Origin: Thermodesulfobacteriota bacterium
GTDB taxonomy: Bacteria > Desulfobacterota > BSN033 > UBA1163
Direction of reading: 5' to 3'
DNA length: 64,000 nucleotides
NCBI GenBank assembly: GCA_035625415.1
Contig: DASPPQ010000068.1
Span: 23,590-87,589, forward strand
The notes beneath the pieces are model-generated. The model was given only the letters and a program-made list of their open reading frames with translations, was not told where the DNA came from and ran no database searches. How positions within the stretch are numbered: position 1 is the stretch's first letter; each line of letters starts with the position of its first letter. A program made the position numbers and the translations under genes. Positions 1,138 through 58,506 of the stretch are shown here, one piece after another.

Positions 1138-3519
1138 TTAGGCTTTATAAATTTTGACGCGCGTGGATTCATTGATCGGGTATCCGGTCAAAGGATCCAA
1201 ATCTCCCCCGATGAGTCGATAAGGATTTTCCCCCAGGTTTTCGGACCAGCGACCTCCGGATTTGTGTCCCTCGCCAAAAGGAATACTTGCGACCTCCGGC
1301 ATGGCTCCCTTATAAAGGATTGCCCTTGCTTTTATCTTCGCCTTCGGGGATTCCACCCATACCCAGTCTTTATCCTCGACCCCAAGCCGCTTCGCCGTCT
1401 CAGGATTGATCTCCACCCATGTTTCCCATCTCTCAAACACATAGGATCCGACGCTGGCTTGAAGCCAGGGCTGGTTGGCATTGCGGCTGCCTGTCAGCGT
1501 CATTGTTCTAAATATGTTGAGATGAAATGGATACTCTTTTTTATCAGTTCTCTTCTCCGATTCCTCCCAATGGGGGAAGAAAGAAACATCTTTAGGATCA
1601 TAGGCCAAGGGTGGATGAGTTTGCTTCAATCCCTGCGCATAGAACTCGAATTTTTTTGTGGGGGTTCGAAAAACCCGATCCCATTCCTTAAAGTCATAGA
1701 TGGGGTCCCACCATCCCCCTTTCTCTTGAAGCTGTTTCCAGAACTCATCAAAGGTTTTGTAGGAAGGGGCTGCCCAGCCCCCTCTCTCAAGTAGACGGGT
1801 CCAGGCTTGTTCAAACTGGAGGCCGAAGACGTCGCCCCGTTTTGCGTCGAAAACCCCTTTGATCCCGTAAAGCAAGACTTCCTTAAAATCACTCCAGGGA
1901 AAGGCCTTCTGGATCTCTCCCCCTAGGGATTTTGTGATTTGAAGGAGGATGTCACCCGTCGCTTTCGTTTGATAGAGCGGCTCAACGATGGGTTGCCGGA
2001 TTCCGAGAACTGGAAACCCTTTGTTCAAAGAGACAGGATCATCCTGCCATCTTTCAAGGGGCGTATGGTCGGGTAGAATAAGGTCTGCGAATAGGGTCGT
2101 GTCGTCCATGTAGGGGGAAAAACTGACAATCAAAGGAATTTCCACAAAGGCCTTTAAGAAGAGATCTGGATTCGGATTCGAAAAGAGAGGATTACTGTAG
2201 TAAATAAACAGGGCTTCCGGGCGATACGGTTTTCCAGAGGCCGCATTTCTGGCAAAGAAATAGGGTTGCTGGAGCATCACGGAAGATTTCTTCACGCCAT
2301 CGATTCTTTCGACTCGCAGTCCCTTTTCAGCGACAGCATCTTTTCCAAACGGCGGAAGCGACTGAAGGGGAACCGTTCTCGGTACGAGGAGCCCTCCCGA
2401 GGCATCGATGTTACCCGCCAATCCGTTCAGGATTGAAACGGCCATCTGTTGGAAAGGACGATCCCGGAAGCCTATGGCGATAGAGGGCTGGTTTGATGCA
2501 AACTCCCGGGCCAGCCGGATGATCGAATCAACGGGCACGCCTGTCCGCCGAGACACGACATCAGAGTCGTATTCCGAAAGGACAAATTCCTTGAAACCGA
2601 GATGTTCTTTTCCGCTTGGGTCCGTCCAATTTTCAAACCCGGAACTGAGACTGGCCACAAATTCTTTATGGTAAAGTCCCTCCTTAATCATCATATTTGC
2701 AATGCCGAGAGCCAACAACCCTTCGGTTCCGGGCTGGATTGGAAGCCACTCGTCCGCTTTGATGCCGGTGACGGAGAGGCGCGGTTCAATCTGGACCAAT
2801 TTACCACGGCGTTCCGAGTTTCCCCTCCTGAATTGCCCATAAGCACTTAGGGCCTGCACGGGAGACCAGTACGATTCGAGGAGGTCCGAACCAAAAGAGA
2901 GTATGTATCGGACATTTTCGAAGTCATAAGCGGGCAGGGAATGGATTCCCTGAGTGAGATAGAGGCCCTCCATGGTTGGGCCTTCCCATTGAAACTGATT
3001 ATCGATATAATTGGGCGATCCAAAGGTCTCGAGAAAACGTTCCCAAAGACCTCTCATCAACCCCCGGTATCTTCCTCCCAGAAGCACAAGGCGATGAGGC
3101 TCTCCATTTTTCCGGAGTTTTCTCAGTGATTCGGTAACAACGGAAAGCGCCTCATCCCATGAGACCGGTTGCCATCGACCTTCGCCTCTCCTGCCCGACC
3201 TCTTTAAGGGAGTGCGAATGCGGTCCGGATCGTAGAGACCTTGGAGGCTTGCAATCCCTTTGGGACAGAGAGTCCCACGGTTGACAGGATGGAGGGGGTT
3301 TCCAACGATGTTGACGGCCCATCCGTCAATAATTCTAGCCAGTATTCCGCAGCCGCCTGTGCATTGCCCGCAAACGGTAGGAATCCACCTTTCGACACCA
3401 GGAGGATTTAGATTCTTGGCGACTGGGAATTGGGACCATTTCCAGAAACCGCCCCCGAGGGCAATAGCGGTGCCGGCCCCTGCACCCATCTTCAAAAAAT
3501 CCCTACGGCTGAGTTTCAT
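1138..3519 (-). CDS. TAT-exported molybdopterin-oxidoreductase family subunit (PsrA/ActB1-like)
   Basis: Twin-arginine signal MKLSRRDFLKMGAGAG. N-terminal C-x2-C-x3-C...C motif (VCGQCTGGCG...CPKG). About 790 aa with MopB-like length and order. The 20 aa upstream of the TAT Met in the ORF track are translated repeat, so the start is placed at 3519. Confidence 0.8.
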   Translation of the reverse strand: MKLSRRDFLKMGAGAGTAIALGGGFWKWSQFPVAKNLNPPGVERWIPTVCGQCTGGCGILARIIDGWAVNIVGNPLHPVNRGTLCPKGIASLQGLYDPDRIRTPLKRSGRRGEGRWQPVSWDEALSVVTESLRKLRKNGEPHRLVLLGGRYRGLMRGLWERFLETFGSPNYIDNQFQWEGPTMEGLYLTQGIHSLPAYDFENVRYILSFGSDLLESYWSPVQALSAYGQFRRGNSERRGKLVQIEPRLSVTGIKADEWLPIQPGTEGLLALGIANMMIKEGLYHKEFVASLSSGFENWTDPSGKEHLGFKEFVLSEYDSDVVSRRTGVPVDSIIRLAREFASNQPSIAIGFRDRPFQQMAVSILNGLAGNIDASGGLLVPRTVPLQSLPPFGKDAVAEKGLRVERIDGVKKSSVMLQQPYFFARNAASGKPYRPEALFIYYSNPLFSNPNPDLFLKAFVEIPLIVSFSPYMDDTTLFADLILPDHTPLERWQDDPVSLNKGFPVLGIRQPIVEPLYQTKATGDILLQITKSLGGEIQKAFPWSDFKEVLLYGIKGVFDAKRGDVFGLQFEQAWTRLLERGGWAAPSYKTFDEFWKQLQEKGGWWDPIYDFKEWDRVFRTPTKKFEFYAQGLKQTHPPLAYDPKDVSFFPHWEESEKRTDKKEYPFHLNIFRTMTLTGSRNANQPWLQASVGSYVFERWETWVEINPETAKRLGVEDKDWVWVESPKAKIKARAILYKGAMPEVASIPFGEGHKSGGRWSENLGENPYRLIGGDLDPLTGYPINESTRVKIYKA

Positions 3520-3530
3520 CGTATACTCAC

Positions 3531-3677
3531 CAAACTCCAAATTCCAAATTCCAAATCCCAAATCCCAAGTAAATCCCAAGCACCAATTTCAAAATTTCGG
3601 AACGATTTTATTTGAATTTTGAATTTTGCAGATTGGAGTTTATTTGGAATTTGGTGCTTGTCATTTGGTGCTTTCCT
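3531..3677. repeat. Imperfect palindromic intergenic element with (CCAAAT)n left arm and (ATTTGG)n right arm (family copy B)
   Basis: ccaaattccaaattccaaatcccaaatcccaag...aagcaccaatttc // gaatttggtgcttgtcatttggtgcttt. The arms are reverse complements. Spurious ORFs on both strands translate it. Confidence 0.6.
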
Positions 3678-3679
3678 CA

Positions 3680-4186
3680 TTAGACATGGCATTCCAAGCA
3701 ATCATTCGTTACTTTGTTCTCGGAATGGCAGTTCATGCACCAATTCATCGTCATCTTCACCCATGGCCTGGAGGGTGGTCGCTCGCTTTCAGCAATATTT
3801 CCATGGCAGGTCTGACATGGCAGTTTTCCTAGAACCACATGCCGACGGTGGGAAAAGAAGACGTGATCGGGTTCTCCGTATATTCGTCTCCAGGAAATTT
3901 CTCGTCCCTTTTTTTGATATTGTCTGATCTTTTCTTCTTCTGAGGATTTGGTAACCGGTTCTTTATGGCATTCAAGGCAGGTGGTTAGGTCAGGCATTCC
4001 GGAAAAGTTTTGAGTTTTAAAATAACGGTGACAGGAGTCGCACTCTAACCCCTGTTCAATATGTTTCTTATGGTTGAAGGAGATCGGTTGGCCAGTCCTG
4101 GAGCCAATGCCCAAACGGATGAGGAGGAAGAGTATAAGGAACCCTGCCGCCAATCCAATAAGGAAAAATTTCATGCTGTGAGCCAT
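3680..4186 (-). CDS. Pentahaem c-type cytochrome (ActA-like)
   Basis: Five CxxCH motifs (CDSCH, CLECH, CQTCH, CMNCH, CLECH). N-terminal membrane anchor. Lies immediately upstream of the Mo/FeS subunit genes. Confidence 0.75.
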   Translation of the reverse strand: MAHSMKFFLIGLAAGFLILFLLIRLGIGSRTGQPISFNHKKHIEQGLECDSCHRYFKTQNFSGMPDLTTCLECHKEPVTKSSEEEKIRQYQKKGREISWRRIYGEPDHVFFSHRRHVVLGKLPCQTCHGNIAESERPPSRPWVKMTMNWCMNCHSENKVTNDCLECHV

Positions 4187-7272: not shown

Positions 7273-8070
7273 ATGCAGGTCGATATTCAACTGGTTCCAT
7301 CTCCACCGAATTCAGATGCCCTTTTAAATCGAACAGTCGTTGTCGTCGATGTTCTGAGAGCGACTTCTGTCATGGTCAATGCGATATCCCAGGGAGCCTT
7401 GGAGATTCTCCCTTTGGCCGGTGTGGAGGAGGCTCTTCAGATGGCTAAGGTTTTTCCGCGGGGTTCCGTGCTTTTAGGCGGGGAGAGGGAAAGTAAGAGT
7501 ATACCGGGATTTGATTTAGGGAATTCTCCCAAAGAGTATGTCGCCGAAAGTGTGAAAGGGAAGAAACTGATCCTGACGACGACCAACGGAACAAAGGCGT
7601 TTCATTTGGTTTCTTCCGGGAAAGAAGTTTTAGTGGGAAGTTTTCTTAACATTGGAGCCGTGGCACGGAGATGTCTTGAGTCAGGGAGGGAGCTGCTCAT
7701 TTTCCTCTCAGGGGATGAAGGAGGTTTTTCTCTGGAGGACACAGTCTGCGGAGGAATGTTGATCGGTCTGATCACAAAGAAAAGGAAGAAATCTATTTCT
7801 CTGACGGATGCCTCCAGATGCGCCCAGATTCTTTATCAAAGATTCAAAAATAATTTATTAGAAGCTTTTCACCTCTCCTATCATGGAAAACAGTTGATTA
7901 ACCGTGGTTTTGAGGATGACCTTGACTATTGCGCTCAAATCGATATTACCTCCCTTGTCCCCGTATTTAGAGAAGGGGTGATCAGGGCCCCCTCATCCCC
8001 ACCCTCTCCCGCGCGGGGAGAGGGGAAGGGTGAGGGGCGTTATGCGATGCAAATTGAGGAGAACGAGTGA
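7273..8070 (+). CDS. 2-phosphosulfolactate phosphatase (ComB) family protein
   Basis: VVVVDVLRATSVMVNA and LGNSPKE motifs are typical of the ComB family. ATGA overlap with the next gene. Confidence 0.5.
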   Translation: MQVDIQLVPSPPNSDALLNRTVVVVDVLRATSVMVNAISQGALEILPLAGVEEALQMAKVFPRGSVLLGGERESKSIPGFDLGNSPKEYVAESVKGKKLILTTTNGTKAFHLVSSGKEVLVGSFLNIGAVARRCLESGRELLIFLSGDEGGFSLEDTVCGGMLIGLITKKRKKSISLTDASRCAQILYQRFKNNLLEAFHLSYHGKQLINRGFEDDLDYCAQIDITSLVPVFREGVIRAPSSPPSPARGEGKGEGRYAMQIEENE

Positions 8071-8540: not shown

Positions 8541-9761
8541 ATGAAATCTTCTGTCTCTATTGTCAAGTGCAAAGAATATGATGAAGAAAAGGTCTTGAGC
8601 GCGCTTCGCCAGGCCATCGACCTGATCGGAGGGATTCAAACTTTTGTAAACAAAGACAGTCGTGCTCGGCTCGGGGCGCTCTCCTCTCGGCGCTCGTCTC
8701 TCGGCAAAGCCGAGGGAAGCCGAGGGAAGCCACGGGTTCTCCTTAAACCTAATCTCCTTTACGGAAAACCTCCAGAAAAAGCTGTGACGACTCATCCCTC
8801 TGTCGTGAGGGGGATGATCCAGATCGTTCGAGAGGCGGGAGGAGTCCCTTTTATTGGAGATAGTCCTTCGGTCGGAAGTTTGACGAGGACGGCTGAGAAA
8901 GCTGGCATCAAGGCAGTGGCCGATAAGATGAAGTGCCCTCTTGTGGAATTCAACAGACCTGTTCTCCCTTTGAAAGGCGGAGGGAGAACATTTAGACAAT
9001 TGGAAGTTGACCAGACTGTTTTGGAAGCGGATGTGATCATCAACCTTCCTAAATTCAAAACCCATAGCCTGACGCTTCTCACCCTGGGGGTAAAGAACCT
9101 CTTCGGGTGTATCCCCGGACCTAAGAAAGCCTTATGGCATCTCAAGGCAGGAGATGATCGAAAAATCTTTGCCCAAATACTTTTTGATATCTCCCAGGTG
9201 ATCCAGCCCTCCCTCTCCATTTTGGATGGGATTGTGGGGATGGAAGGGAATGGACCGAATAGCGGCCGCCCGATTCCAATAGGATTGGTTCTGGCAAGCG
9301 GGGACCCCTTGAGTTTGGATCAGATCGTATGTGACCTGTTAGGGATTTCAAGGGAATCTCTGTTAACGAATCGTGTGGCGCTTGAACAGGGGATGGGAAA
9401 AGATCCGATTGAGGTTCTGGGGGAAAGGGTACAAGATCTTAAGATTTCCAACTTCCAGTTTCCAGCCCTCTCTCAGCCGGATTGGCACTTACCGGCAATC
9501 TTGAGAAAGGCGTTGAAGAATGCTCTGACTTCCAAACCAGTGATCGATGACGAAGTATGCAAGGATTGTGATCAATGTGCAAAGATCTGCCCACCCCAAG
9601 CCCTAACGAGAAAGGGAACGGATTTGATCTTTGATTACGGAGAATGCATTCGTTGCTTCTGTTGTCTTGAGGTCTGCTCAGAAGGAGCCATCTCGATCAA
9701 ACCAGGATGGGCCTTGAAGCTCGTCAGTGGAAGGTCGAAGGTGGAAAGTGGAAAGCAGTAG
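8541..9761 (+). CDS. DUF362 domain protein with C-terminal 4Fe-4S dicluster
   Basis: DUF362-like core plus CKDCDQCAKICP and CIRCFCCLEVC motifs. Contains a low-complexity insertion (SSRRSSLGKAEGSRGKPR) encoded by a short tandem gccgagggaa repeat. Confidence 0.5.
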   Translation: MKSSVSIVKCKEYDEEKVLSALRQAIDLIGGIQTFVNKDSRARLGALSSRRSSLGKAEGSRGKPRVLLKPNLLYGKPPEKAVTTHPSVVRGMIQIVREAGGVPFIGDSPSVGSLTRTAEKAGIKAVADKMKCPLVEFNRPVLPLKGGGRTFRQLEVDQTVLEADVIINLPKFKTHSLTLLTLGVKNLFGCIPGPKKALWHLKAGDDRKIFAQILFDISQVIQPSLSILDGIVGMEGNGPNSGRPIPIGLVLASGDPLSLDQIVCDLLGISRESLLTNRVALEQGMGKDPIEVLGERVQDLKISNFQFPALSQPDWHLPAILRKALKNALTSKPVIDDEVCKDCDQCAKICPPQALTRKGTDLIFDYGECIRCFCCLEVCSEGAISIKPGWALKLVSGRSKVESGKQ

Positions 9762-9819
9762 GTTGAAGGCAGTAAGCGGAAGGTAGCTGTAGCACCCTCA
9801 TTTACTGTGGGCGAAGATT

Positions 9820-12423: not shown

Positions 12424-14520
12424 ATGAAGCGAGGCGAACCAACCACCATTCGAAACATAGGAACCTTCGGCCACGGCGGTGAAGGGAAGACCTCCTTGGT
12501 TGAGGCCATTCTCCTTGACGTGGGCGAAAATACCCGTCTTGGCCGTGTGGATGATGGTTCCTCGTTGATGGATTTTGAACCGGAAGAAATCAATCGAAAG
12601 ATTAGCATCAGTGCCTCTCTTTCTCATTTTGAGTGGAATAAACATTCGTTTCATATCATTGATACCCCGGGGTATGCCAATTTTATCGCTGAGGCGAAGG
12701 CCTCCATGAGGGTGGTAGATGGGGCCGTCATCGTCGTCAGCGGAAATTCGGGGGTCAAAGTGCAAACCGAGACCGTGTGGGGATACGCCAATGAGTTTCA
12801 AGTCCCACGAATTCTGTATGTCAGCAAAATGGATACGGAACGGGCCAATTTTCTCAAAGTGGTGGATGAGGTGAAAAAGATTTTTCCTTCTCAACCCCCC
12901 GTTCCTGTTCAACTTCCCATCGGAGGAGACGGAAGTTTTAAGGGCATGGTGGATTTGATTCAGAGGAAGGCTTATTTGTATCGTGAAGATGGGAGCGGTC
13001 AATTCGAACTCAAGGACGTCCCTCCGGACATGAAAGAAGGGGTGGAACGGCTTCGCGAGAAGCTGGTCGAGATCGTGGTGGAAATGGACGATCAATTAAT
13101 GGAAAAATACTTGGAGTCGGGAGAGGTTTCCATAGAGGAGATTACCCGGTGTCTTCGAAAGGGAACGATGGAAAGAAAACTGGTTCCTGCCCTTTGCGGC
13201 TCCTCCACCCGAAACATAGGGATGCAACCTTTTCTTGATCTGGCGATCTCCTGCTTTCCTTCACCGTTGGAAAGGGGTCCGGTTCAGGGAAAGAATCCCA
13301 GGACGGGAGAACCTGAAACCCGTGAACCCAAAGAAGATGCACCTTTCTCCGCCTTTGTCTTTAAGACGATCGCCGATCCCTTTGCCGGAAAACTGAGTCT
13401 CTTCAGGGTTTATTCTGGAACGGCGAATGCAGATTCCACTCTCTATAATTCCAAAAAGGATGTGAAGGAGAGAATCGGCCAAATTTTCTTGTTGGAAGGG
13501 AAGAAGCAGAAGCCGGTTGGCTTCGCCGGCGTAGGCGATATTGTGGCGGTTGCCAAATTGAAAGAAACCACGACGGGTGACACCTTCTCCGATGAGAAAA
13601 AGCCCATTGTATTCGAAGAAACGAAACTCCCCCTTCCTGTGATCTCCTACGCGCTAACCCCAAAGAGCAAAGGGGATGAGGACAAGATCACCGCTTCCCT
13701 GGCGCGCATCCACGAAGAAGATCCGACGATGATGTTGGGCCGGGACGAACAGACCGGTGAGATCATTCTCTCCGGTGTGGGCCAGACCCACGTGGAAGTC
13801 ATCGTTGAAAAATTAAAAAGGAAATTCGGGGTGGAGGTCAACCTCAGTGTCCCGAAAGTTCCGTATAAAGAGACGATCCGTGGATCGAAGACCGGAGTGA
13901 TCTATCGGCATAAAAAACAGACGGGGGGCCGGGGGCAGTTTGCTGAAGTCCATTTCGATGTTTCTTCCCTTCCGCGGGGATCGGGGTTCGAATTCGAAAA
14001 TGCCCTCACGGGAATGAACGTTCCAAGGAATTTTGTTCCGGCGGTTGAGAAGGGAATCGCTGAAGCGATGCAAAGCGGCGTCCTGGCTGGCTACCCAGTC
14101 GTGGACGTAAAAGTCCGATTCTACGACGGGAAGTCTCATGAGGTCGACTCCTCAGAGATGGCATTCAAGATCGCTGCGATCATGGCTTTTAAGAAAGGGG
14201 TTCAGGACGCCAACCCAGTGCTTCTTGAGCCCATCATGAAGGTGGTGGTGACGGCGCCGGACGAGAACATCGGTGATGTGATCGGCGACCTCAACAGCCG
14301 CCGGGGAAGAGTTCTAAGAGTCGATTCCAAAGGGAATTATCAAATGATCGAAGCCAATGTCCCGATGTCGGAGATGTTGAAATATGCTCCGGACCTCAAT
14401 TCCAAAACAGGGGGTCGCGGAACCTTTACCATGGAATTCTCCCACTATGAGGAAGTTCCTGCCCAACTGGCGGATAAGGTGATTGCTCAGGCCAAGAAGG
14501 AAAAGGAGAAAGAAGACTAA
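12424..14520 (+). CDS. Elongation factor G paralog (EF-G2-like translational GTPase)
   Basis: 698 aa. P-loop GHGGEGKTS, DTPG, SKMD and the full five-domain EF-G length. Not in the rpsL-rpsG-fusA context. Confidence 0.75.
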   Translation: MKRGEPTTIRNIGTFGHGGEGKTSLVEAILLDVGENTRLGRVDDGSSLMDFEPEEINRKISISASLSHFEWNKHSFHIIDTPGYANFIAEAKASMRVVDGAVIVVSGNSGVKVQTETVWGYANEFQVPRILYVSKMDTERANFLKVVDEVKKIFPSQPPVPVQLPIGGDGSFKGMVDLIQRKAYLYREDGSGQFELKDVPPDMKEGVERLREKLVEIVVEMDDQLMEKYLESGEVSIEEITRCLRKGTMERKLVPALCGSSTRNIGMQPFLDLAISCFPSPLERGPVQGKNPRTGEPETREPKEDAPFSAFVFKTIADPFAGKLSLFRVYSGTANADSTLYNSKKDVKERIGQIFLLEGKKQKPVGFAGVGDIVAVAKLKETTTGDTFSDEKKPIVFEETKLPLPVISYALTPKSKGDEDKITASLARIHEEDPTMMLGRDEQTGEIILSGVGQTHVEVIVEKLKRKFGVEVNLSVPKVPYKETIRGSKTGVIYRHKKQTGGRGQFAEVHFDVSSLPRGSGFEFENALTGMNVPRNFVPAVEKGIAEAMQSGVLAGYPVVDVKVRFYDGKSHEVDSSEMAFKIAAIMAFKKGVQDANPVLLEPIMKVVVTAPDENIGDVIGDLNSRRGRVLRVDSKGNYQMIEANVPMSEMLKYAPDLNSKTGGRGTFTMEFSHYEEVPAQLADKVIAQAKKEKEKED

Positions 14521-14531
14521 TCTGCAAGAAG

Positions 14532-14659
14532 GTCAAATCTCAAATGTCAAAGCCCAAATACCAAAGGAATGCCCAAATATCTTAATGCGAAAATGTCCTT
14601 TCGACATTTAGATTTTGAGCTTTATTTGAACCTTGGACTTTGACATTTGGAATTTTCGG
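14532..14659. repeat. Imperfect palindromic intergenic element with CAAAT arms (family copy C), central 7-bp hairpin
   Basis: ggtcaaatctcaaatgtcaaagcccaaataccaaagg ... ctttggactttgacatttggaattttc. Centre is aaatgtc ctttc gacattt. Confidence 0.55.
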
Positions 14660-17130: not shown

Positions 17131-17139
17131 AATAAATAA

Positions 17140-17291
17140 AAAGGCCGAATTGAAATAAGCGGGGGAACCAGTTTTTAGGGGTGAATTCTAGACATCTAGA
17201 GAGGATATCCCTTAATCCTAACCCGTCAGCTAACTCCGCAGGCGACTAAGGGAGAGAATCGAACGCAGGGGATCCTCCTCTGCTTTTTTTT
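17140..17291 (+). promoter_or_regulatory. Candidate c-di-AMP (ydaO/kimA-class) riboswitch leader with intrinsic terminator, upstream of kdp operon
   Basis: Contains GCGGGGGAACC, GGGGTGAAT and ACCCGTCAGCTAACTCCGCAGGCG, recalled from memory as c-di-AMP riboswitch signature blocks. Ends in hairpin gcagggg-atcct-cctctgc plus T8. Confidence 0.5.
17265..17291 (+). terminator. Rho-independent terminator/attenuator hairpin + T-run in kdp leader
   Basis: 7-bp GC-rich stem (one G-U pair), 5-nt loop, followed by tttttttt. About 195 nt upstream of the first kdp-associated ORF. Confidence 0.6.
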
Positions 17292-38909: not shown

Positions 38910-41723
38910 ATGGTAATGGATTACCGTCACACATTAAATCTCCCTAAAACGGACTTCCCCATGAAGGCCAATTTGGCGAAAAGGGAACCTGAGATGCTGG
39001 CGGCCTGGGAGGCGATGGGAATCTATCGTCAAATCATCCAAGGGGCCAAAGGAAGGCCGAAATATATCCTTCACGATGGACCTCCCTATGCAAACGGAAA
39101 TATTCATATCGGGACCGCCTTGAACAAAATCCTAAAAGACTTCATCGTTAAATCGAAGTTCATGACCGGGTTTGACAGCCACTACGTTCCGGGATGGGAC
39201 TGCCATGGGTTACCCGTTGAACACGAAGTGGAAAAAGGCCTCGGCGCGAAAAAAGCCGGTCTCAGTATCGTCGAAATCCGGCGCAGATGCCGGGAGTACG
39301 CAGCAAAATTTGTCGGGATTCAGAAAAAGGAATTTAAGCGGCTCGGAGTTTTCGGGGAATGGGAAAATCCATATCTGACCATGAATTTTGAATATCAGGC
39401 AACCATTGTTCGAGAGTTCGGAAAGTTCCTTTTGGATGGCTTGGTTTACAAAGGAAAAAAGCCCGTCTACTGGTGTCCTACCTGCAAAACGGCTTTAGCT
39501 GAGGCCGAGGTAAAATACGAAGATATCCGTTCCTCCTCCATCTATGTGAAATTTAGAATGATCTCCGATATCGGGAGGGAGTTCCAAAGCCTCAGTGGAA
39601 AACCCGTTTTCGTCATCATTTGGACGACCACTCCCTGGACAATCCCGGCTAATTTGGCAATTGCACTCCATCCTGATTTCACTTATGCAGCAGTGGACGT
39701 GGGGGGTGAAGTCTACATCCTGGCAGAGGGTCTCTTGGAAGAGGTGATGAAGAAATTCGGAATCAAGACATATAAGGTATTGGAGAAATTTCCGGGGAAG
39801 AGATTAGAAGGACTGAAAGCCAGGCATCCCTTCCTCGACCGGGACTCCCTGATCATTCTTGCCTCCTACGTGACTTTGGACGCCGGAACAGGAAGTGTTC
39901 ACACCGCGCCCGGCCATGGTCAGGAGGACTATGAGAGTGGAGTGCAATATGGCCTGGAGGTCTACAGCCCGGTGGACGATGACGGCCGTTTTACCCCGGA
40001 TGTCCTTTTCTTTGCGGGACAGTTCGTTTTTGATGCGAACAACGCTGTAAATAAGAAGCTGGCCGAGGTCGGGGCACTCCTGAAAGAAGAGGTCATGGTG
40101 CATTCCTATCCCCATTGTTGGCGGACCAATGACCCGATTATCTTTCGAGCTACGGAGCAATGGTTCATTTCCATGGATAAGAAAGGATTGAGACAGAATG
40201 CTCTGAAAGCCATCGGTGAGGTGACCTGGATCCCTCCCTGGGGAAGGGATCGTATTCACGGGATGATTGAGAACCGACCGGATTGGTGTGTGTCCAGGCA
40301 GAGGGCCTGGGGCATTCCCATCACCGTTTATTACTGTTCGGCCTGCGAGCAACCCCTGATCAGTCGGCAGGTCATTGACCACACCGTCCGCCTTTTTGAG
40401 ACGGAGGGAGCGGACATCTGGTTTGAAGAGGGGACGAATCGCCTCTTGCCAAAAGGAACCCAATGTCCTGCATGCGGCGGAAAAGATTTTAAGAAGGAGA
40501 CGGATATTCTGGATGTCTGGTTTGACTCAGGAGTTTCCTATGCGGCGGTCCTGGAGAAACGGAAAGAGCTTGAGTATCCGGCCAGTCTTTATCTGGAGGG
40601 AAGCGATCAACACCGGGGATGGTTCCACAGCTCTCTTCTCACTTCTGTCGGCACGAGGGGTCGTGCTCCCTATCTCTCCGTTCTTACCCACGGGTTTGTC
40701 GTGGACGGAGAGGGGAAAAAGATGTCGAAGTCAGCGGGGAATGTGATCGCACCCGAAGAGGTGATCAATCAGCTAGGAGCCGATGTCCTGAGACTTTGGG
40801 TTGCGGCGGAGGATTACAAGGATGACATCAAGATCTCTAACGAAATCCTGAAACGGCTGGCGGATAGCTATTTCCGCATTCGAAATACGTACCGCTTTCT
40901 ATTAGGAAATCTCTACGACTTCCACCCCGAGAAAGACCGGGTTCCCTATCGTGACCTTGAAGAGATGGATCGATGGGCCCTCCATCGGCTCCAGAAAGTC
41001 ACCGCCAGAATTCGCGAGGCTTATGAACGGTTTGAATTCCATGTGGTCTACCACAGCGTTCAGAATTTTTGCGCCGTGGAGATGAGTGCCCTTTATTTCG
41101 ATATTTTGAAGGACCGGCTTTATACATTCCCCTCCGGATCCCGGGGCCGGAAATCGGCGCAGACCGCACTGTACGAAATTTTAGAGGTTTTGACTTGCCT
41201 CATGGCTCCCATTCTTTCGTTTACTTCGGAAGAGGTCTGGAAATATCTTCCTCAAAGACCGGACAAGGCTGAAAGTGTTCACCTGACTGCCTTTCCCGAA
41301 GTGCAGGGTGAATATCTGGACGATGCATTAAGTGAAAGGTGGGACCGGATCTGGGAGATTCGAGCCGTGGTGACCAAGGCTTTGGAAGAGGCCCGGAGGG
41401 AGAAGGTGATCGGGCTCTCGCTGGACGCACAAGTCCATGTCTATCTTCCTGAAAAGGTCTTTTCATTCCTTAAATCTTACGAGAAGGACCTAAAGTCAAT
41501 TTTTATCGTCTCCTCGGTCACCCTTCATCCCGCTGTCAACGGAACCGGGGATGAAAAGGAAACGAGGGTGGAAGTACTCCGGGCAGAGGGCAAGAAATGT
41601 GAGAGATGCTGGAATTACGAAGTGACTGTGGGGGAGCATCCGGAGCATCAGACGATCTGCGGCAGATGCGTCGAGGCGATCCAGGGAGCAAGCACCAAAT
41701 CCCAAGCACCAAACACCAAATAA
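38910..41723 (+). CDS. ileS: Isoleucine--tRNA ligase (type 1, Zn-finger C-terminus)
   Basis: PYANGNIHIGTALNKI (HIGH) and KKMSKSAGN (KMSKS). C-terminus CERCWNY...CGRCV. 937 aa. Confidence 0.95.
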   Translation: MVMDYRHTLNLPKTDFPMKANLAKREPEMLAAWEAMGIYRQIIQGAKGRPKYILHDGPPYANGNIHIGTALNKILKDFIVKSKFMTGFDSHYVPGWDCHGLPVEHEVEKGLGAKKAGLSIVEIRRRCREYAAKFVGIQKKEFKRLGVFGEWENPYLTMNFEYQATIVREFGKFLLDGLVYKGKKPVYWCPTCKTALAEAEVKYEDIRSSSIYVKFRMISDIGREFQSLSGKPVFVIIWTTTPWTIPANLAIALHPDFTYAAVDVGGEVYILAEGLLEEVMKKFGIKTYKVLEKFPGKRLEGLKARHPFLDRDSLIILASYVTLDAGTGSVHTAPGHGQEDYESGVQYGLEVYSPVDDDGRFTPDVLFFAGQFVFDANNAVNKKLAEVGALLKEEVMVHSYPHCWRTNDPIIFRATEQWFISMDKKGLRQNALKAIGEVTWIPPWGRDRIHGMIENRPDWCVSRQRAWGIPITVYYCSACEQPLISRQVIDHTVRLFETEGADIWFEEGTNRLLPKGTQCPACGGKDFKKETDILDVWFDSGVSYAAVLEKRKELEYPASLYLEGSDQHRGWFHSSLLTSVGTRGRAPYLSVLTHGFVVDGEGKKMSKSAGNVIAPEEVINQLGADVLRLWVAAEDYKDDIKISNEILKRLADSYFRIRNTYRFLLGNLYDFHPEKDRVPYRDLEEMDRWALHRLQKVTARIREAYERFEFHVVYHSVQNFCAVEMSALYFDILKDRLYTFPSGSRGRKSAQTALYEILEVLTCLMAPILSFTSEEVWKYLPQRPDKAESVHLTAFPEVQGEYLDDALSERWDRIWEIRAVVTKALEEARREKVIGLSLDAQVHVYLPEKVFSFLKSYEKDLKSIFIVSSVTLHPAVNGTGDEKETRVEVLRAEGKKCERCWNYEVTVGEHPEHQTICGRCVEAIQGASTKSQAPNTK

Positions 41724-41807
41724 GCTCCAATGAATAGAATTCAAGTTTCCAAAAGAAAAAGTCTCGGTCATTGGGATTTGGAATTTAGAATTTGGAATTT
41801 AAGCACC
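41688..41807. repeat. Imperfect palindromic element with CCAAAT arms (family copy D); left arm lies inside the ileS 3' end
   Basis: agcaagcaccaaatcccaagcaccaaacaccaaataa (last 11 codons of ileS) ... cattgggatttggaatttagaatttggaatttaagcacc. Confidence 0.6.
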
Positions 41808-41851
41808 TAATCAAGAAGGCTTTCGGTTCGTGAATAGACGTAGGTGTAAGG

Positions 41852-42370
41852 GTGGGCATGAAACGGAAATATTGGATCTTTTTGATTTTCTGTTTTGGAG
41901 TTCTGGCGCTCGACCAGTGGACCAAATATCTGATCGTGCAAAAACTGCGTCTCTATCAAAGCGTGCAGGTGATCGACGGATTCTTTAACATTGTCCAGGT
42001 GAGGAATACAGGCGGTGCTTTCGGAATTTTCGGAGGAGGAAAAGGAGGGATCGGTTCCATCCTCTTTGTGGTTGTTTCCCTGATTGCCATTGGGGCCATC
42101 GTTTTTCTCTTCGTTAAAACCAGGGAAAATGAAAAGACTCTCGCCCTCTCATTTTCTTTAATTCTGAGTGGCGCCCTGGGAAACCTCATCGACCGTCTCC
42201 ACTACGGGGAAGTTGTAGATTTCCTGGACTTTCATCTATCTACTTATCACTGGCCCGCCTTCAACGTAGCGGATTCGGCCATCTGCATCGGCATCGGGCT
42301 AATGGCGTTACAGGTATTGATCAGGGATCATAAGAAAAGAACCAAATCCAAAGCACCAAGCCCCAAATAG
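41852..42370 (+). CDS. lspA: Lipoprotein signal peptidase (signal peptidase II)
   Basis: LDQWTKYLIV...NTGGAFGIF...NLIDRL...DFLDF is the LspA pattern. Classic ileS-lspA linkage. Confidence 0.85.
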   Translation: MGMKRKYWIFLIFCFGVLALDQWTKYLIVQKLRLYQSVQVIDGFFNIVQVRNTGGAFGIFGGGKGGIGSILFVVVSLIAIGAIVFLFVKTRENEKTLALSFSLILSGALGNLIDRLHYGEVVDFLDFHLSTYHWPAFNVADSAICIGIGLMALQVLIRDHKKRTKSKAPSPK

Positions 42371-42380
42371 ACTCCAAAAA

Positions 42381-42842
42381 ATGCACCCCGTTCTGTTTCA
42401 ATTCGGAACTTTGCGCATTTACGCGTATGGGTTCTTCATCGCCGTGGGTTTTGTCTCCGCCGTGGTCCTTGCCACCTTGAAAATTCGAAAACCAAATACT
42501 GGGATTTCTTTTGAAAACATCGTGGATCTCTTCTTCTACACAGTCCTGTCAGCTCTTATCGGGTCGAGAGTGCTGTTTGTATTGATCAATTTTGACCTTT
42601 GCCGGAACCATCCGATGCAGATATTCAAGATATGGGAAGGAGGCTTGGTCTTTTACGGCGGGCTTGCCTTGGCTGTCATGGTGGCCTTCTGGTATATGAG
42701 GTGGAACCGGTTGCCCGTTTGGAAATTGGCTGATCTTGTTGGCCATTCCCTCTTTTTTTATGTTATTCTATATGAAGAAAAGATATCGGAGATACAAAGT
42801 TGGCTGTTCTTGAAATCGTTAAATATCCTCATCCGATCTTGA
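42381..42842 (+). pseudogene. lgt: Prolipoprotein diacylglyceryl transferase, N-terminal 40% only (C-terminal catalytic half deleted)
   Basis: Residues 1-125 align to Lgt (FGTLRIYAYGFFIAVGF...VWEGGLVFYGGLALAVM...ADLVGHSL). The reading frame then reads unrelated sequence into def. About 60 nt remain before the def start, so the G..NGEL.GR signature region is absent. Confidence 0.6.
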
Positions 42843-47469: not shown

Positions 47470-48123
47470 TTGAAAAAAATAGCGCCTTCGATTTTATCGG
47501 CGGATTTCAGCCGGCTCGGTGAGGAGGTCAGGGCAGTCGAAAAGGCTGGGGCGGATGTGATCCATGTCGATGTGATGGATGGGCATTTCGTTCCGAACAT
47601 CACCATCGGCCCTTTGGTTGTGGAGGGACTGAGGAAGTTAACCTCACGGCCTCTCGATGTGCATTTAATGATCGAAAACCCTGATCGCTATATTGAAGCC
47701 TTTGCTCAGGCGGGCGGCGATTGGATAACGATTCATGCTGAGGTGTGCCCCCATCTCAAGAGGACAATCAAGAAGATTCGCGGGCTGAATGTGAGGCCGG
47801 GTGTCGTGCTTAAGCCTGCAACTTCGTTGAACGTCCTTCATACCGTTCTTGAGGATGTGGACTTAGTCCTGGTTATGTCGGTTAACCCCGGGTTTGGCGG
47901 GCAATCGTTTATTCCTTCCACGCTGAAAAAGATTGAACGGTTGAGAAAAATGGTCGATCAAAACCGCCACCCGCTGGAAATAGAGGTGGATGGAGGAGTC
48001 AAAATCGAGAACATCAGGAGGGTCTCAGCAGCCGGCGGAGACATCTTCGTTGTTGGTACGGGCATCTTTAAGACCGAAAGCTACGAAGAGACTATAAAGA
48101 AGTTGAGAGAAGAAATTGGGTGA
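47470..48123 (+). CDS. rpe: Ribulose-phosphate 3-epimerase
   Basis: IAPSILSADFSRLGEEV...HVDVMDGHFVPN...DGGV. TTG start. Confidence 0.9.
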   Translation: MKKIAPSILSADFSRLGEEVRAVEKAGADVIHVDVMDGHFVPNITIGPLVVEGLRKLTSRPLDVHLMIENPDRYIEAFAQAGGDWITIHAEVCPHLKRTIKKIRGLNVRPGVVLKPATSLNVLHTVLEDVDLVLVMSVNPGFGGQSFIPSTLKKIERLRKMVDQNRHPLEIEVDGGVKIENIRRVSAAGGDIFVVGTGIFKTESYEETIKKLREEIG

Positions 48124-48129
48124 CGGAAG

Positions 48130-48282
48130 TACCAAGTTCCAAGCACCAAATCCCAAATAAATTTCAATCACCAAAATCCGAAAAGCCGGGATGGTCATTT
48201 GAGATTGAAATTTGGGCGTAGGGAACGGTTTCAAACCGTTCCCTAAAGGTATTTGGAATTTGTGATTTGGGATTTAAGACAA
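48130..48282. repeat. Imperfect palindromic element with CCAAAT arms (family copy F) enclosing a central REP-like hairpin (48218-48245)
   Basis: accaagttccaagcaccaaatcccaaataaatttcaatcaccaaaatccg ... gtaggg aacggtt tca aaccgtt ccc ... ggtatttggaatttgtgatttgggatttaag. Confidence 0.6.
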
Positions 48283-54894: not shown

Positions 54895-55036
54895 GCGTTT
54901 AAAATCCCAAATCACAAATTTCAAATCGCAAATAAGCACCAATTTCGAATTTCCAATGACCGAACACATTGTATTTCCAATTTGAGCGATTGGAAAATTT
55001 ATTCGAAATTTGGCGTTTGGAATTTGGTGCTTCCGT
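54895..55036. repeat. Imperfect palindromic element with CCAAAT arms (family copy G)
   Basis: aaaatcccaaatcacaaatttcaaatcgcaaataagcaccaatttcgaatttccaatg ... cattggaaaatttattcgaaatttggcgtttggaatttggtgcttccg. Confidence 0.6.
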
Positions 55037-55066: not shown

Positions 55067-55615
55067 TTAACTGGAGTGGCATGCATAGCAATCCGTCGCG
55101 GCTCCTTTTCTCTTGTGGCAGTCCAGGCACCACTCCATATACAATCGATCAACCATTCTTACAGGGGTATCACTGACACCCGTGACCCCGTGACAGGTGG
55201 AGCAATCGATTTGGCCCTGGATATGAATCCAGTGAGGGAAGACGACAAATTTCGGAAGCTCGTACATCCGATTCCAGGGAATTCTCTTATTCGCTTTCAC
55301 GTATTCAACCACTTTTAGCGCCTCAGGCCTCTTACTGATTGCATCACTCGAATGGCAGGCTCGACAGAGTTCGATGTTTGGAATCCCGGCAGCACGGTGT
55401 TCGCTGGCATGCGAGTGGCAGAAAATACAGTTCAACCTGGCCACTTCTTTGTGGTGGATATGATTGAAGCGGACGGGTTGATCGACAGGCTCACTTTTTA
55501 GAATCGGGAAGACAAAGAAAATTAGAGATTTCATTGGGACCCGGAAACGATGCCATGCAACAGTGATGGTAAGAAGAATCACGAGGACCACCACAAGAAA
55601 GCCAATCTTCTTCAT
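55067..55615 (-). CDS. Pentahaem c-type cytochrome (ActA-like)
   Basis: N-terminal TM anchor. Five CxxCH motifs (CIFCH, CRACH, CSTCH, CLDCH, CYACH). Confidence 0.75.
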   Translation of the reverse strand: MKKIGFLVVVLVILLTITVAWHRFRVPMKSLIFFVFPILKSEPVDQPVRFNHIHHKEVARLNCIFCHSHASEHRAAGIPNIELCRACHSSDAISKRPEALKVVEYVKANKRIPWNRMYELPKFVVFPHWIHIQGQIDCSTCHGVTGVSDTPVRMVDRLYMEWCLDCHKRKGAATDCYACHSS

Positions 55616-57826: not shown

Positions 57827-57885
57827 TTCAAGTTCCTCCGTAAATCCCCCTACTCCCCCCTTTACTAAAAGGGGGGTGGGGGGGA

Positions 57886-58506
57886 TTACGTAATCAGATA
57901 GAACAGGGGGTATAGAAAGATCCAGATGATATCGACCAGGTGCCAGTATAATCCCGCATTTTCCAAGGGAATGAAGCGCATCTGGTTAAGCCTGTTTTTG
58001 TCAATGAGAATTAACATTACAGAGAGGATGCAGACCCCCACGAGCACATGGAGTCCGTGGAGACCTGTCATCACATAGTAAAGGCCGAAAAAAAGAATCT
58101 CCCCCTTCGCACGGGCCAATAGGGTCGGAGAATTCGGATAAATACCATGTTCAATTTTACCGCCCCATTCAAAGCCCTTGTTCCCGAGAAAGAGGAGGCC
58201 AAGAGCGATTGTAGCCATCAGCAAGACCATTGACAATCTGCGCTCGCCCTTTCGGAGGGCTGTGATGGAGGCTGCTACGCATAAGCTGCTGGTCAGGAGG
58301 ATAATGGTGTTTAACGTGCCGAGAAGGATCTCCAGTTGCCTCGAGGCATGATGAAAATTGACGGGGTCTTTATAGCGGTAGGCAGAGTAGAGGATGAACA
58401 TCCCTCCAAAGAGGAGAAGTTCGGACAGAATGAAAAGCCACATACCCAGCTTGGCGCTGGTATCCTCCCTGGTCTCTTCAAAGACAGCCTCTCGTGCTTC
58501 ATCCAT
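57886..58506 (-). CDS. coxC: Cytochrome c oxidase subunit III
   Basis: COX3-like seven-helix protein. Start placed at MDEAREAVFEE so that it does not overlap coxA. Confidence 0.8.
   Translation of the reverse strand: MDEAREAVFEETREDTSAKLGMWLFILSELLLFGGMFILYSAYRYKDPVNFHHASRQLEILLGTLNTIILLTSSLCVAASITALRKGERRLSMVLLMATIALGLLFLGNKGFEWGGKIEHGIYPNSPTLLARAKGEILFFGLYYVMTGLHGLHVLVGVCILSVMLILIDKNRLNQMRFIPLENAGLYWHLVDIIWIFLYPLFYLIT

Follow-up and report, generated by a model that had tools for sequence, protein, structure and literature searches.

In a 64,000-nt stretch of DNA from a Thermodesulfobacteriota bacterium (GenBank assembly GCA_035625415.1, contig DASPPQ010000068.1, positions 23,590 to 87,589; analysed over its whole length and hereafter called the window), two unrelated proteins, IleS and LspA, end in near-identical, repeat-derived peptides, i.e. 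...EAIQGASTKSQAPNTK and ...KKRTKSKAPSPK as predicted from the DNA. In ileS as in lspA, the final 34 nt correspond to the opening 34 nt of a dispersed, imperfect palindrome of around 130 nt. Very probably, the two tails, found in an uncultured and sulfate-reducer-like lineage, are by-products of this intergenic and lineage-restricted repeat, which is read when the native stop codon of the gene in front of it is lost or abutted.

According to the list of open reading frames (ORFs), ileS occupies positions 38910–41723 of the forward strand and encodes 937 aa including the repeat-encoded tail; its homologues are 81–91 % identical and carry the tRNA-synt_1, Anticodon_1 and zf-FPG_IleRS Pfam domains. 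The gene ends in GGA GCA AGC ACC AAA TCC CAA GCA CCA AAC ACC AAA TAA, read as G A S T K S Q A P N T K and stop (C-terminus ...CGRCVEAIQGASTKSQAPNTK*), and the sequence, the ends of the orthologues and an alignment of the ileS 3′ ends (A1) delimit the extension to 41688–41723 (+), i.e. a linker codon GCA (Ala), STKSQAPNTK and TAA. The lspA gene (41858–42370, +; 170 aa from the ATG at 41858, with an alternative GTG start at 41852), which was identified from the ORF list and its PF01252 homologues, closes with AGA ACC AAA TCC AAA GCA CCA AGC CCC AAA TAG, read as R T K S K A P S P K and stop (C-terminus ...LIRDHKKRTKSKAPSPK*). A 46-nt direct repeat with 83 % identity (41690–41735 versus 42337–42382) links both 3′ ends and runs around 12 nt beyond either stop codon. 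The repeat is read in the same phase in both genes, the codon AGC or AGA beginning at base 2 of AAGCACC or AAGAACC, respectively. A first-pass annotation, made from the letters of the window alone, had described the near-identical tails, had ascribed them to repeat DNA and had proposed that the repeat supplies the stop codon. Coordinates, sequence and reading frames are as it described them, the 46-nt direct repeat and the common phase bear out the origin of the tails, and TAA and TAG indeed belong to the conserved CAAATAA of the repeat. Its view of both copies as left arms holds for lspA, where the left arm is an orphan, and fails for ileS, where a right arm follows at 41763–41800 and completes a hairpin element.

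The element is 110–150 nt long (median 130 nt), and its arms are tandem arrays of the 7-nt units AAGCACC, AAATnnC and CCAAATy, with 70–88 % complementarity between arms. It starts sharply at AAGCACCAAAT, and the consensus of the family, based on alignment A2 and a profile from 35 copies, reads AAGCACCAAATnnCAAGCACCAAATnnCAAATAAATTCCAATGACC...loop...GGTCATT..GGAATTTGGAGCTTATTTGGGATTTGGAATTTGnGATTTGGGA. When up to three mismatches are allowed, the 18-nt core CCAAATCCNAAGCACCAA occurs eight times in the window versus 0.25 times expected, a number reached by none of 100 shuffled sequences; plain CCAAAT is weakly enriched (77 versus 62 expected). The window harbours four complete copies, one orphan left arm, i.e. 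the lspA tail, and two degenerate or diverged copies. Scored with the family profile, window copies reached 107, 87, 78 and 73 bits in the best orientation versus 60, 42, 31 and 46 bits in the other, and the element can therefore be assigned a direction. The four complete copies and the orphan arm each follow immediately on the 3′ end of a gene of their own strand: in two cases (ileS and lspA) the element contains the stop codon, and at the remaining complete copies the stop codon precedes AAGCACC by 3, 6 and 34 nt.

The complete copy at ileS (41690–41800, +; left arm 41690–41735, right arm 41763–41800) matches the family profile with an nhmmer E value of 6e-23, contains period-7 arrays at 41689–41720 and 41771–41800, and forms an inverted repeat (I2) with 88 % complementarity. 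Its right arm is around 23 nt short of the family consensus, which accounts for a comparatively weak fold (−26.4 kcal/mol, z −1.85). The orphan left arm at lspA (42337–42382, +; direct repeat D2, 83 % identical to the ileS copy) encodes RTKSKAPSPK and TAG and lacks the loop and the right arm. It matches positions 1–80 of the profile in part (E 6e-7), its similarity to the repeat extends over only about 46 nt, and its surroundings fold like shuffled sequence (z 0.0), the ATG of lgt being located at 42381, 10 nt past the lspA stop codon.

Translation of the consensus explains the form of the tails. Phase 1, AGC ACC AAA Tnn CAA GCA CCA AAT nnC AAA TAA, yields S-T-K-x-Q-A-P-N-x-K and stop, i.e. 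the tail of IleS and LspA, and phase 2 yields A-P-N-P-K-H-Q-I-P-N-K-F-Q (APNPKHQIPNKFQ) with the TGA of CCAATGACC as its stop codon. Phase 3 is open for longer (K-H-Q-I-P-S-T-K-S-Q-I-N-S-N..., ...KHQIPSTKSQINSN...). Since the stops in CAAATAA and CCAATGA end two of the phases within the left arm after around 10 or 13 codons, and the third, open into the loop, gives tails of around 15–25 residues, all fusions are short C-terminal tails. The variable tail residues 4 (S/F/Y/C/L) and 9 (P/T/S/N/Y/H/I/F) coincide with the NN positions of the repeat, with GA or AA at NN generating forms that end in STK*; thus, the peptide motif put forward in the first-pass annotation is simply the repeat consensus in translation. 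Read in other phases or from the opposite strand, the element also yields false small ‘hypothetical proteins’: the spurious ORFs at 41606–41737 (+) and 41496–41771 (−) consist largely of repeat arms, e.g. ...GSKHQIPSTKHQISSNE*.

When metagenome contigs were scanned for exact matches to GCACCAAATNNCAAGCACCAA, at least 120 stretches representing at least 124 distinct sites were returned; the counts of sites that follow refer to the matches listed. Positions −1 and −2, directly ahead of GCACC, hold A in 120–122 of 122 sites and position −3 is mixed (T 41, C 32, G 27 and A 22), so that the 5′ boundary is sharp. At 84 of 124 sites, an ORF of at least 100 codons on the same strand ends between −200 and +130 nt, its stop codon being located 1–15 nt upstream of the element in 25 cases and inside the left arm in 13, although some of these 13 ORFs run antisense in high-GC contigs and are spurious. 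Where a long ORF lies upstream, it is on the same strand at 68 sites versus on the opposite strand at 27. The median element length is 130 nt, and the fold z score is below −2 at 75 % of the sites. Fusions confirmed by Pfam, with the tail following the last domain, were found for SAM_HAT (SAM hydroxide adenosyltransferase), Fer2_2 (a [2Fe-2S] protein), HHH, RNase III with dsrm and the Vut_1 transporter, along with two LspA and one probable TRAM-domain end. At least five protein families besides IleS and LspA therefore end in the repeat. The core 10-mer AAGCACCAAA has a density of around 10 per 100 kb in the window and its close relatives and is absent from 1.08 Mb of sequence surrounding distant lspA genes; judging by these counts, the element appears lineage-restricted. 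A viral origin was set aside, with only four matches in 2.9 million viral contigs.

Comparison with orthologues confirmed the expectation that the IleS tail is a lineage-specific extension. Among the 120 closest IleS sequences (81–91 % identity), 116 lack it and stop at the native end, 1–2 residues past ...C.RCVEAIQ, i.e. at ...EAIQ(G/E/K)*; the tail is therefore an addition to an otherwise complete protein. Only P0158, P0174, P0197 and P0233 bear a tail, of 11 residues and of the form (A/T/G)(S/G)TK(S/F)QAP(N/S)(T/N)K. The spacers between ileS and lspA fall into two types that are unrelated to each other. In type A, found in the window and in the relatives L204 (P0174) and L206 (P0233), the CCAAAT element is fused to ileS; these spacers measure 134–152 nt and are homologous throughout, including the non-repeat 3′ part ...AATCAAGAAGGCTTTCGGTTCGTGAATAG...GGTGTAAGGGTGGG. 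In type B, found in L203 (P0121), which is the nearest relative of the window, as well as in L205 (P0194) and L005, ileS stops at the usual place and is followed by ATTGCGGA and then a GC-rich palindrome. In L006, both element and spacer are as in type A, but ileS ends with CAA AAA TAA, followed by AGT GAG GTA AGC ACC AAA, i.e. the element is in frame, 8 nt past an intact TAA. Alignment A1, in which the spacers of the window, L204, L206 and L006 are homologous end to end, shows that the fused alleles have, relative to L006, an in-frame gap of 9 nt over the native TAA.

These data bear on how the tail came about. The first-pass annotation had suggested insertion of the repeat into the 3′ ends of the genes, and the final codons of ileS and lspA might indeed have been hit directly by a mobile element that did away with the native end and introduced a stop codon of its own. 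Dispersed copies with a sharp 5′ boundary would suit such a process, as would the many copies that begin 3–15 nt past a stop codon and the four metagenome sites, among the matches listed, at which the TAA of the gene overlaps the first two A's of the element (taaGCACC). Moreover, an unfused lspA intermediate with the element was not found, the tail-less LspA proteins being 4–7 residues shorter with other ends. We nevertheless regard direct insertion as unlikely: the native C-terminus ...EAIQG is complete in the IleS of the window, the element of L006 follows an intact stop codon that falls within the gap of the fused alleles, all fused ileS alleles have one common junction, and no target-site duplication was seen at 122 metagenome sites. 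The comparison thus speaks against insertion into the coding 3′ end of ileS, given the whole native C-terminus and the stop loss relative to L006. The simplest reading is that the tail arose through loss of the stop codon by a small indel beside a resident element.

The IleS proteins of L204 and L206 are 82–84 % identical to that of the window. Independent, recurrent gains of the ileS tail, at first suggested by the scatter of fused alleles on the tree, were considered and rejected, given the homologous spacer (including its non-repeat 3′ part) and the homologous junction in the window, L204 and L206. In a neighbour-joining tree of the IleS cores, fused alleles appear in at least four separate places, each beside an unfused sister; each type A lineage has a type B sister at 90–93 % identity, and the distribution of the spacers disagrees with the IleS protein tree. 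This scatter suggests recombination, exchange or repeated replacement of the spacer, not recurrent fusion.

The lspA fusion is more common. In the 120 closest LspA sequences (75–99 % identity to the window), the full repeat tail of the STKSQAPNPK type is present in 61, an early stop at ..STK* or ..STKS* in 16, a tail in another phase or reaching deeper into the repeat (..APNPKHQIPNKFQ, ..STKPQINSNESNSKQT or ..APSDKPVPEEFRNKSK*) in eight, an internal insertion in the tail in three and an unrelated short end in 32. With the 27 partial, other-frame or insertion versions included, the fused form therefore makes up around 73 % of the clade. No similar tail was found in any of 71 distant LspA sequences from other taxa (39–49 % identity), in keeping with the lineage-specific origin that had been predicted. 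Nor did the same residues turn up without the repeat DNA, since the tail-sharing relatives L204 and L005 carry it: in both, the lspA tail runs on into a complete element with its loop and right arm (the spacer of L204 measures 140 nt). In the window, only ACTCCAAAAA separates lspA from the ATG of lgt. The lspA fusion is thus old and widespread in the clade, and loop and right arm were lost by deletion in the window only after the fusion. To judge from the ileS and lspA sequences compared, neither fusion is recent or specific to the genome of the window, and both are inherited alleles. The next LspA relatives beyond the clade are less than 50 % identical, and the metagenome-assembled genomes of the clade are labelled Thermodesulfobacteriota, uncultured Syntrophaceae or delta proteobacterium.

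Such persistence raises the question of whether the tail is a selected functional peptide that is carried by, or was recruited from, the repeat, e.g. a Lys-rich cytoplasmic tail, a degron or an interaction motif. The number of LspA proteins with a full or partial tail would fit this idea, and so would its basic character, since the topology of LspA and the positive-inside rule would make a basic tail suitable for a cytoplasmic C-terminus. At three lspA loci chosen independently of the DNA pattern (window, L204 and L005), the first 24 nt of the tail DNA are 0.83–0.96 identical versus 0.47–0.73 for the third codon positions of lspA, i.e. the tail is far more conserved than synonymous positions of the gene. 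Against selection on the peptide, however, more than 100 sites, most of them intergenic, carry the same 30 nt; conservation extends to every codon position, with no synonymous change of GCA CCA or ACC AAA in any DNA copy seen; the variable residues coincide with the NN positions of the repeat; the tail is missing in 116 of 120 IleS and 32 of 120 LspA sequences; and its carriers are cytoplasmic, membrane and nucleic-acid enzymes without a common feature. A selected peptide is therefore very improbable. Because all three codon positions are conserved, as they are in intergenic copies, this small sample rather suggests constraint or homogenisation at the level of DNA or RNA.

Poor assembly of repeats, the uncultured source organism and a 359-nt deletion in the adjacent lgt cast some suspicion on the region, as a frameshift or collapse in repeat DNA might falsely join ORFs to the repeat during assembly or gene calling. 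Yet the ileS and lspA junctions are base-for-base identical on contigs from two runs (SRR7004202 and SRR7004205), and the exact LspA product of the window is encoded on two independent Logan contigs. The same junctions and frame recur in other species-level lineages from NCBI and JGI assemblies (L204, L206, L005, L123 and L135), and the tail is found on dozens of independently assembled proteins, which makes an artefact extremely unlikely.

The element preferentially occupies the DNA just 3′ of a gene, in sense orientation and often 3–15 nt past the stop codon. Under the by-product explanation, once the native stop is lost or abutted by the element, the ribosome would read into the left arm, producing the tail and terminating at the stop codon of the repeat. 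The repeat would have spread as a small, non-autonomous mobile or recombinogenic sequence, the peptide itself would have no selected function, and the hairpin in which the stop codon lies may influence termination or the stability of the mRNA.

Several observations weigh against this explanation. The fused ileS allele is scattered on the IleS tree, which requires recombination or repeated loss, and the lspA tail has been kept in lineages whose synonymous sites are close to saturation, so that the by-product view needs nucleotide constraint or homogenisation of copies; peptide selection, moreover, was weighed on only three unbiased DNA sequences. Neither a target-site duplication nor a clean empty site was found among the 122 metagenome sites and the orthologous loci, the latter differing by replacement of the whole spacer, and we infer mobility only from dispersal and from presence or absence at orthologous sites. 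RNAalifold returned no pairs for 35 aligned copies, i.e. no conserved pairing register; single copies form strong folds, but their pairing shifts from heptamer to heptamer. The sense RNA is only weakly more stable than the antisense RNA (30 of 49, p 0.012); this strand asymmetry was dropped as evidence for a role of the RNA, being too weak.

It is conceivable that a stop codon buried in a stem affects termination or ribosome rescue. Liang, Rudd and Deutscher are said to have found in 2015 that a repetitive extragenic palindromic (REP) sequence within around 15 nt of a stop codon lowers expression in Escherichia coli by ribosome stalling, and by analogy lowered expression is a plausible consequence here. 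Further still, the element might be a sense-oriented 3′-end module that sets termination, mRNA stability or the coupling of adjacent genes, with the stop-in-stem arrangement at ileS and lspA being selected. This reading is prompted by the sense bias (68 versus 27), the clustering within 15 nt of stop codons, the conservation of the left arm far above synonymous sites and the frequency of the lspA fusion in the clade; we consider it rather improbable. If true, the stop codon in the stem could tie the arrival of the ribosome to the opening of the hairpin in the ileS–lspA–lgt operon.

With regard to known repeat classes, the element resembles a miniature inverted-repeat transposable element (MITE) in size and dispersal, being non-coding, 110–150 nt long and present in four complete, one half and two degenerate copies per 64 kb and at no fewer than 124 metagenome sites. 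Its right end is ragged (...ATTTGGGA or ...ATTTGGAA) and in most copies does not complement the sharp left end AAGCACC, and ATTTGGTGC occurs within 260 nt in only 25 of 122 copies among the matches listed. The idea of a TA or TAA target-site duplication was dropped, with T at −3 in only 41 of 122 copies and no conserved flanking base beyond AA. Assignment to REP sequences or REPINs was rejected, given the lack of a GTAG or CGTC tag, the start at AAGCACCAAAT in 120–122 of 122 copies and the tandem 7-nt units. An intrinsic (Rho-independent) terminator does not apply either: within 41500–42600 neither element shows a GC stem with a T run, and the stems are A/T-rich with more than 40 pairs. No Rfam family matched the element at the gathering score across the window, or at E ≤1 within 41600–42450, and the repeat sequence matched only unrelated primers in the searchable literature. 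The element thus fits the definition of a MITE in part and is neither a REP sequence nor an intrinsic terminator. The heptamer-armed palindromes may possibly be made and spread by a mechanism other than classical MITE or REP transposition.

The Rickettsia palindromic elements, reportedly described by Ogata and colleagues in 2000, are said to be selfish palindromes that become incorporated into coding genes, so that unrelated proteins gain a common peptide. They insert in frame within genes and are read through, whereas the present element affects gene ends only and terminates the protein. Heptamer intergenic repeats are known from Cyanobacteria as STRR. The present element also consists of tandem 7-nt units in intergenic DNA, as detected by Tandem Repeats Finder (TRF), but its AAGCACC, AAATnnC and CCAAATy units match the unit sequence neither of STRR nor of the TAACTGA repeats. 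The latter are direct repeats of Beggiatoaceae and Cyanobacteria, whose heptamers overlap the stop codons of upstream genes (PMC4679880). They resemble the element in being 7-nt tandem units concentrated in intergenic regions, and differ in forming direct arrays mostly upstream of start codons (PMC4679880), whereas here opposed arrays of another heptamer give a long hairpin after stop codons.

In Coxiella burnetii, QMITE1 and QMITE2 overlap C-terminal codons of functional genes (42 bp in pntAA and 50 bp in nagZ), and in enhC an in-frame QMITE2 adds 33 residues and a stop codon in one strain, while in another an indel puts the stop just before the element (PMC5896051). The authors raise effects of such overlaps on termination and ribosome rescue (PMC5896051). 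Like the present element, QMITEs are small, non-coding, hairpin-forming and dispersed (PMC5896051), and their fused/unfused polymorphism parallels that between the window and L006; the present element, however, is unrelated in sequence, resides in another host lineage and has arms of 7-nt tandem arrays, and no signature of terminal inverted repeats with target-site duplication was found among its 122 metagenome sites. The enterobacterial RU-1/ERIC, RU-2 and RU-3, palindromic units of around 100–170 bp with ORFs, are fused to annotated genes (Delihas 2007, PMC2759123). They, too, are intergenic palindromes through which unrelated proteins share a repeat-encoded peptide, but they are read in frame over longer stretches (PMC2759123), whereas here the stops of the left arm end two phases and the third gives tails of around 15–25 residues. 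REP sequences are GTAG- or CGTC-tagged palindromes of 20–40 nt (PMC3733652), which as paired inverted units form REPINs with hairpins of around 100 nt (PMC3116915). Both resemble the element as many-copy extragenic palindromes at gene 3′ ends; unlike them, it starts with AAGCACC, lacks either tag and is composed of 7-nt tandem units instead of 20–40-nt palindromes. Therefore, we judge the formation of the tails to be a known kind of by-product of MITE- or REP-like repeats overlapping gene 3′ ends, with nothing to show a new mechanism. The element itself, i.e. heptamer-built, sense-oriented and adjoining stop codons, appears to be undescribed.

Many genes of this lineage and its relatives will be called with spurious-looking but real tails of 10–20 residues (STKSQAPNxK, APNPKHQIPNKFQ, KHQIPSTK...), and many small ‘hypothetical proteins’ will consist of repeat arms in translation; annotators who know the element can mark both. 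In terms of evolution, the locus offers a clean natural series for the C-terminal remodelling of essential proteins (IleS, LspA and RNase III) by repeats, leading from an element past an intact stop codon via a 9-nt indel to a fused tail and finally to loss of the right arm.

The remaining copies in the window were all detected with nhmmer. The complete copy at 3543–3673 (−; E 7e-32, fold z −3.87) contains CCAAATT 5.6 times, its AAGCACC end lying 6 nt past the stop codon of the gene at 3680–4186 (−). Another (48127–48275, +; E 2.5e-21) begins 3 nt past the TGA of the gene at 47470–48123 (+) and possesses an additional GC-rich inner hairpin (−55.7 kcal/mol, z −5.67). The fourth, at 54905–55032 (−; E 1e-25, inverted repeats I2 and I8), is located 34 nt past the stop codon of the gene at 55067–55615 (−). 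A degenerate copy was found at 997–1113 (E 1e-5), and a diverged relative with a TCAAAT-type heptamer hairpin and 44-nt arms at 14537–14651 (E around 1e-8 on both strands, z −5.08), about 10 nt past the stop codon of the gene at 12424–14520 (+). TRF reported period 7 at 3530–3568, 14533–14559, 41689–41720, 41771–41800, 48127–48149, 48251–48275 and 54902–54933.

Next to the copy at 3543–3673, a large minus-strand gene near 3517–3545 probably starts at the ATG of 3519–3517, which is preceded by GGTGAG (6-nt spacer) and GGAG; both motifs fall in a G/T-rich heptamer extension of the element. The right arm of the family often contains TTGGAGCTT, and the element may therefore provide downstream genes with Shine–Dalgarno-like motifs. 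It also misleads ORF callers into extending this gene to a TTG at 3579 within the repeat.

Other repeats share these spacers. The diverged hairpin at 14537–14651 belongs to a sister family with GTCAAAT/CTCAAAT units, also found at L203 3426–3553 and L206 6414–6570, in which each copy combines a left arm of GTCAAAG units with a right arm of the complementary CTTTGAC units; among relatives, this family lies at the lspA–lgt junction, directly after agc(a/c)ccaaatcctaa. A second repeat family comprises GC-rich palindromes (CCCCTCaCCCttCCCCTCTCCC...GGGAGAGGGGAAGGGTGAGGGG), located in the window at 7989–8037 and 57843–57887 and filling the ileS–lspA or lspA–lgt spacers of relatives (L203 2870–2920, L205 and L005). 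Additional 7-nt arrays are common in spacers of the clade, i.e. (AACTCCG)n and (AACTCTT)n shortly before lgt (L204 6594–6633, L205 4822–4851 and the lspA–lgt spacers of L004 and L006) and (ATTGCGG)n in L005, while the window carries (AGTGGAA)n and (CTCGGCT)n within the stretches 9726–9783 and 8664–8705. The lspA ORF of L205 ends in the AACTCTT array (..aaaaactcttaa), so that a different heptamer array supplies the stop codon there.

Downstream of lspA, the lgt gene (42381–42842) is truncated to 153 aa, the Lgt proteins of relatives having 256–262 aa. Across the lgt–def stretch, bases 1–353 and 357–940 of the window align to bases 1–353 and 713–1296 of L203 (lgt at L203 3554–4324), i.e. around 359 nt, corresponding roughly to Lgt residues 119–237, were lost, whereafter the frame enters junk before def. 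The 153-aa product is also called on the independent Logan contig L001. Since Lgt makes the substrate of LspA, either a second lgt is located elsewhere, or the truncated gene is a population variant or a pseudogene. The sole Rfam match in the window is a full-length c-di-AMP riboswitch (ydaO/yuaA leader, RF00379) at 17133–17259 (+), with a score of 98 bits and an E value of 5e-22.

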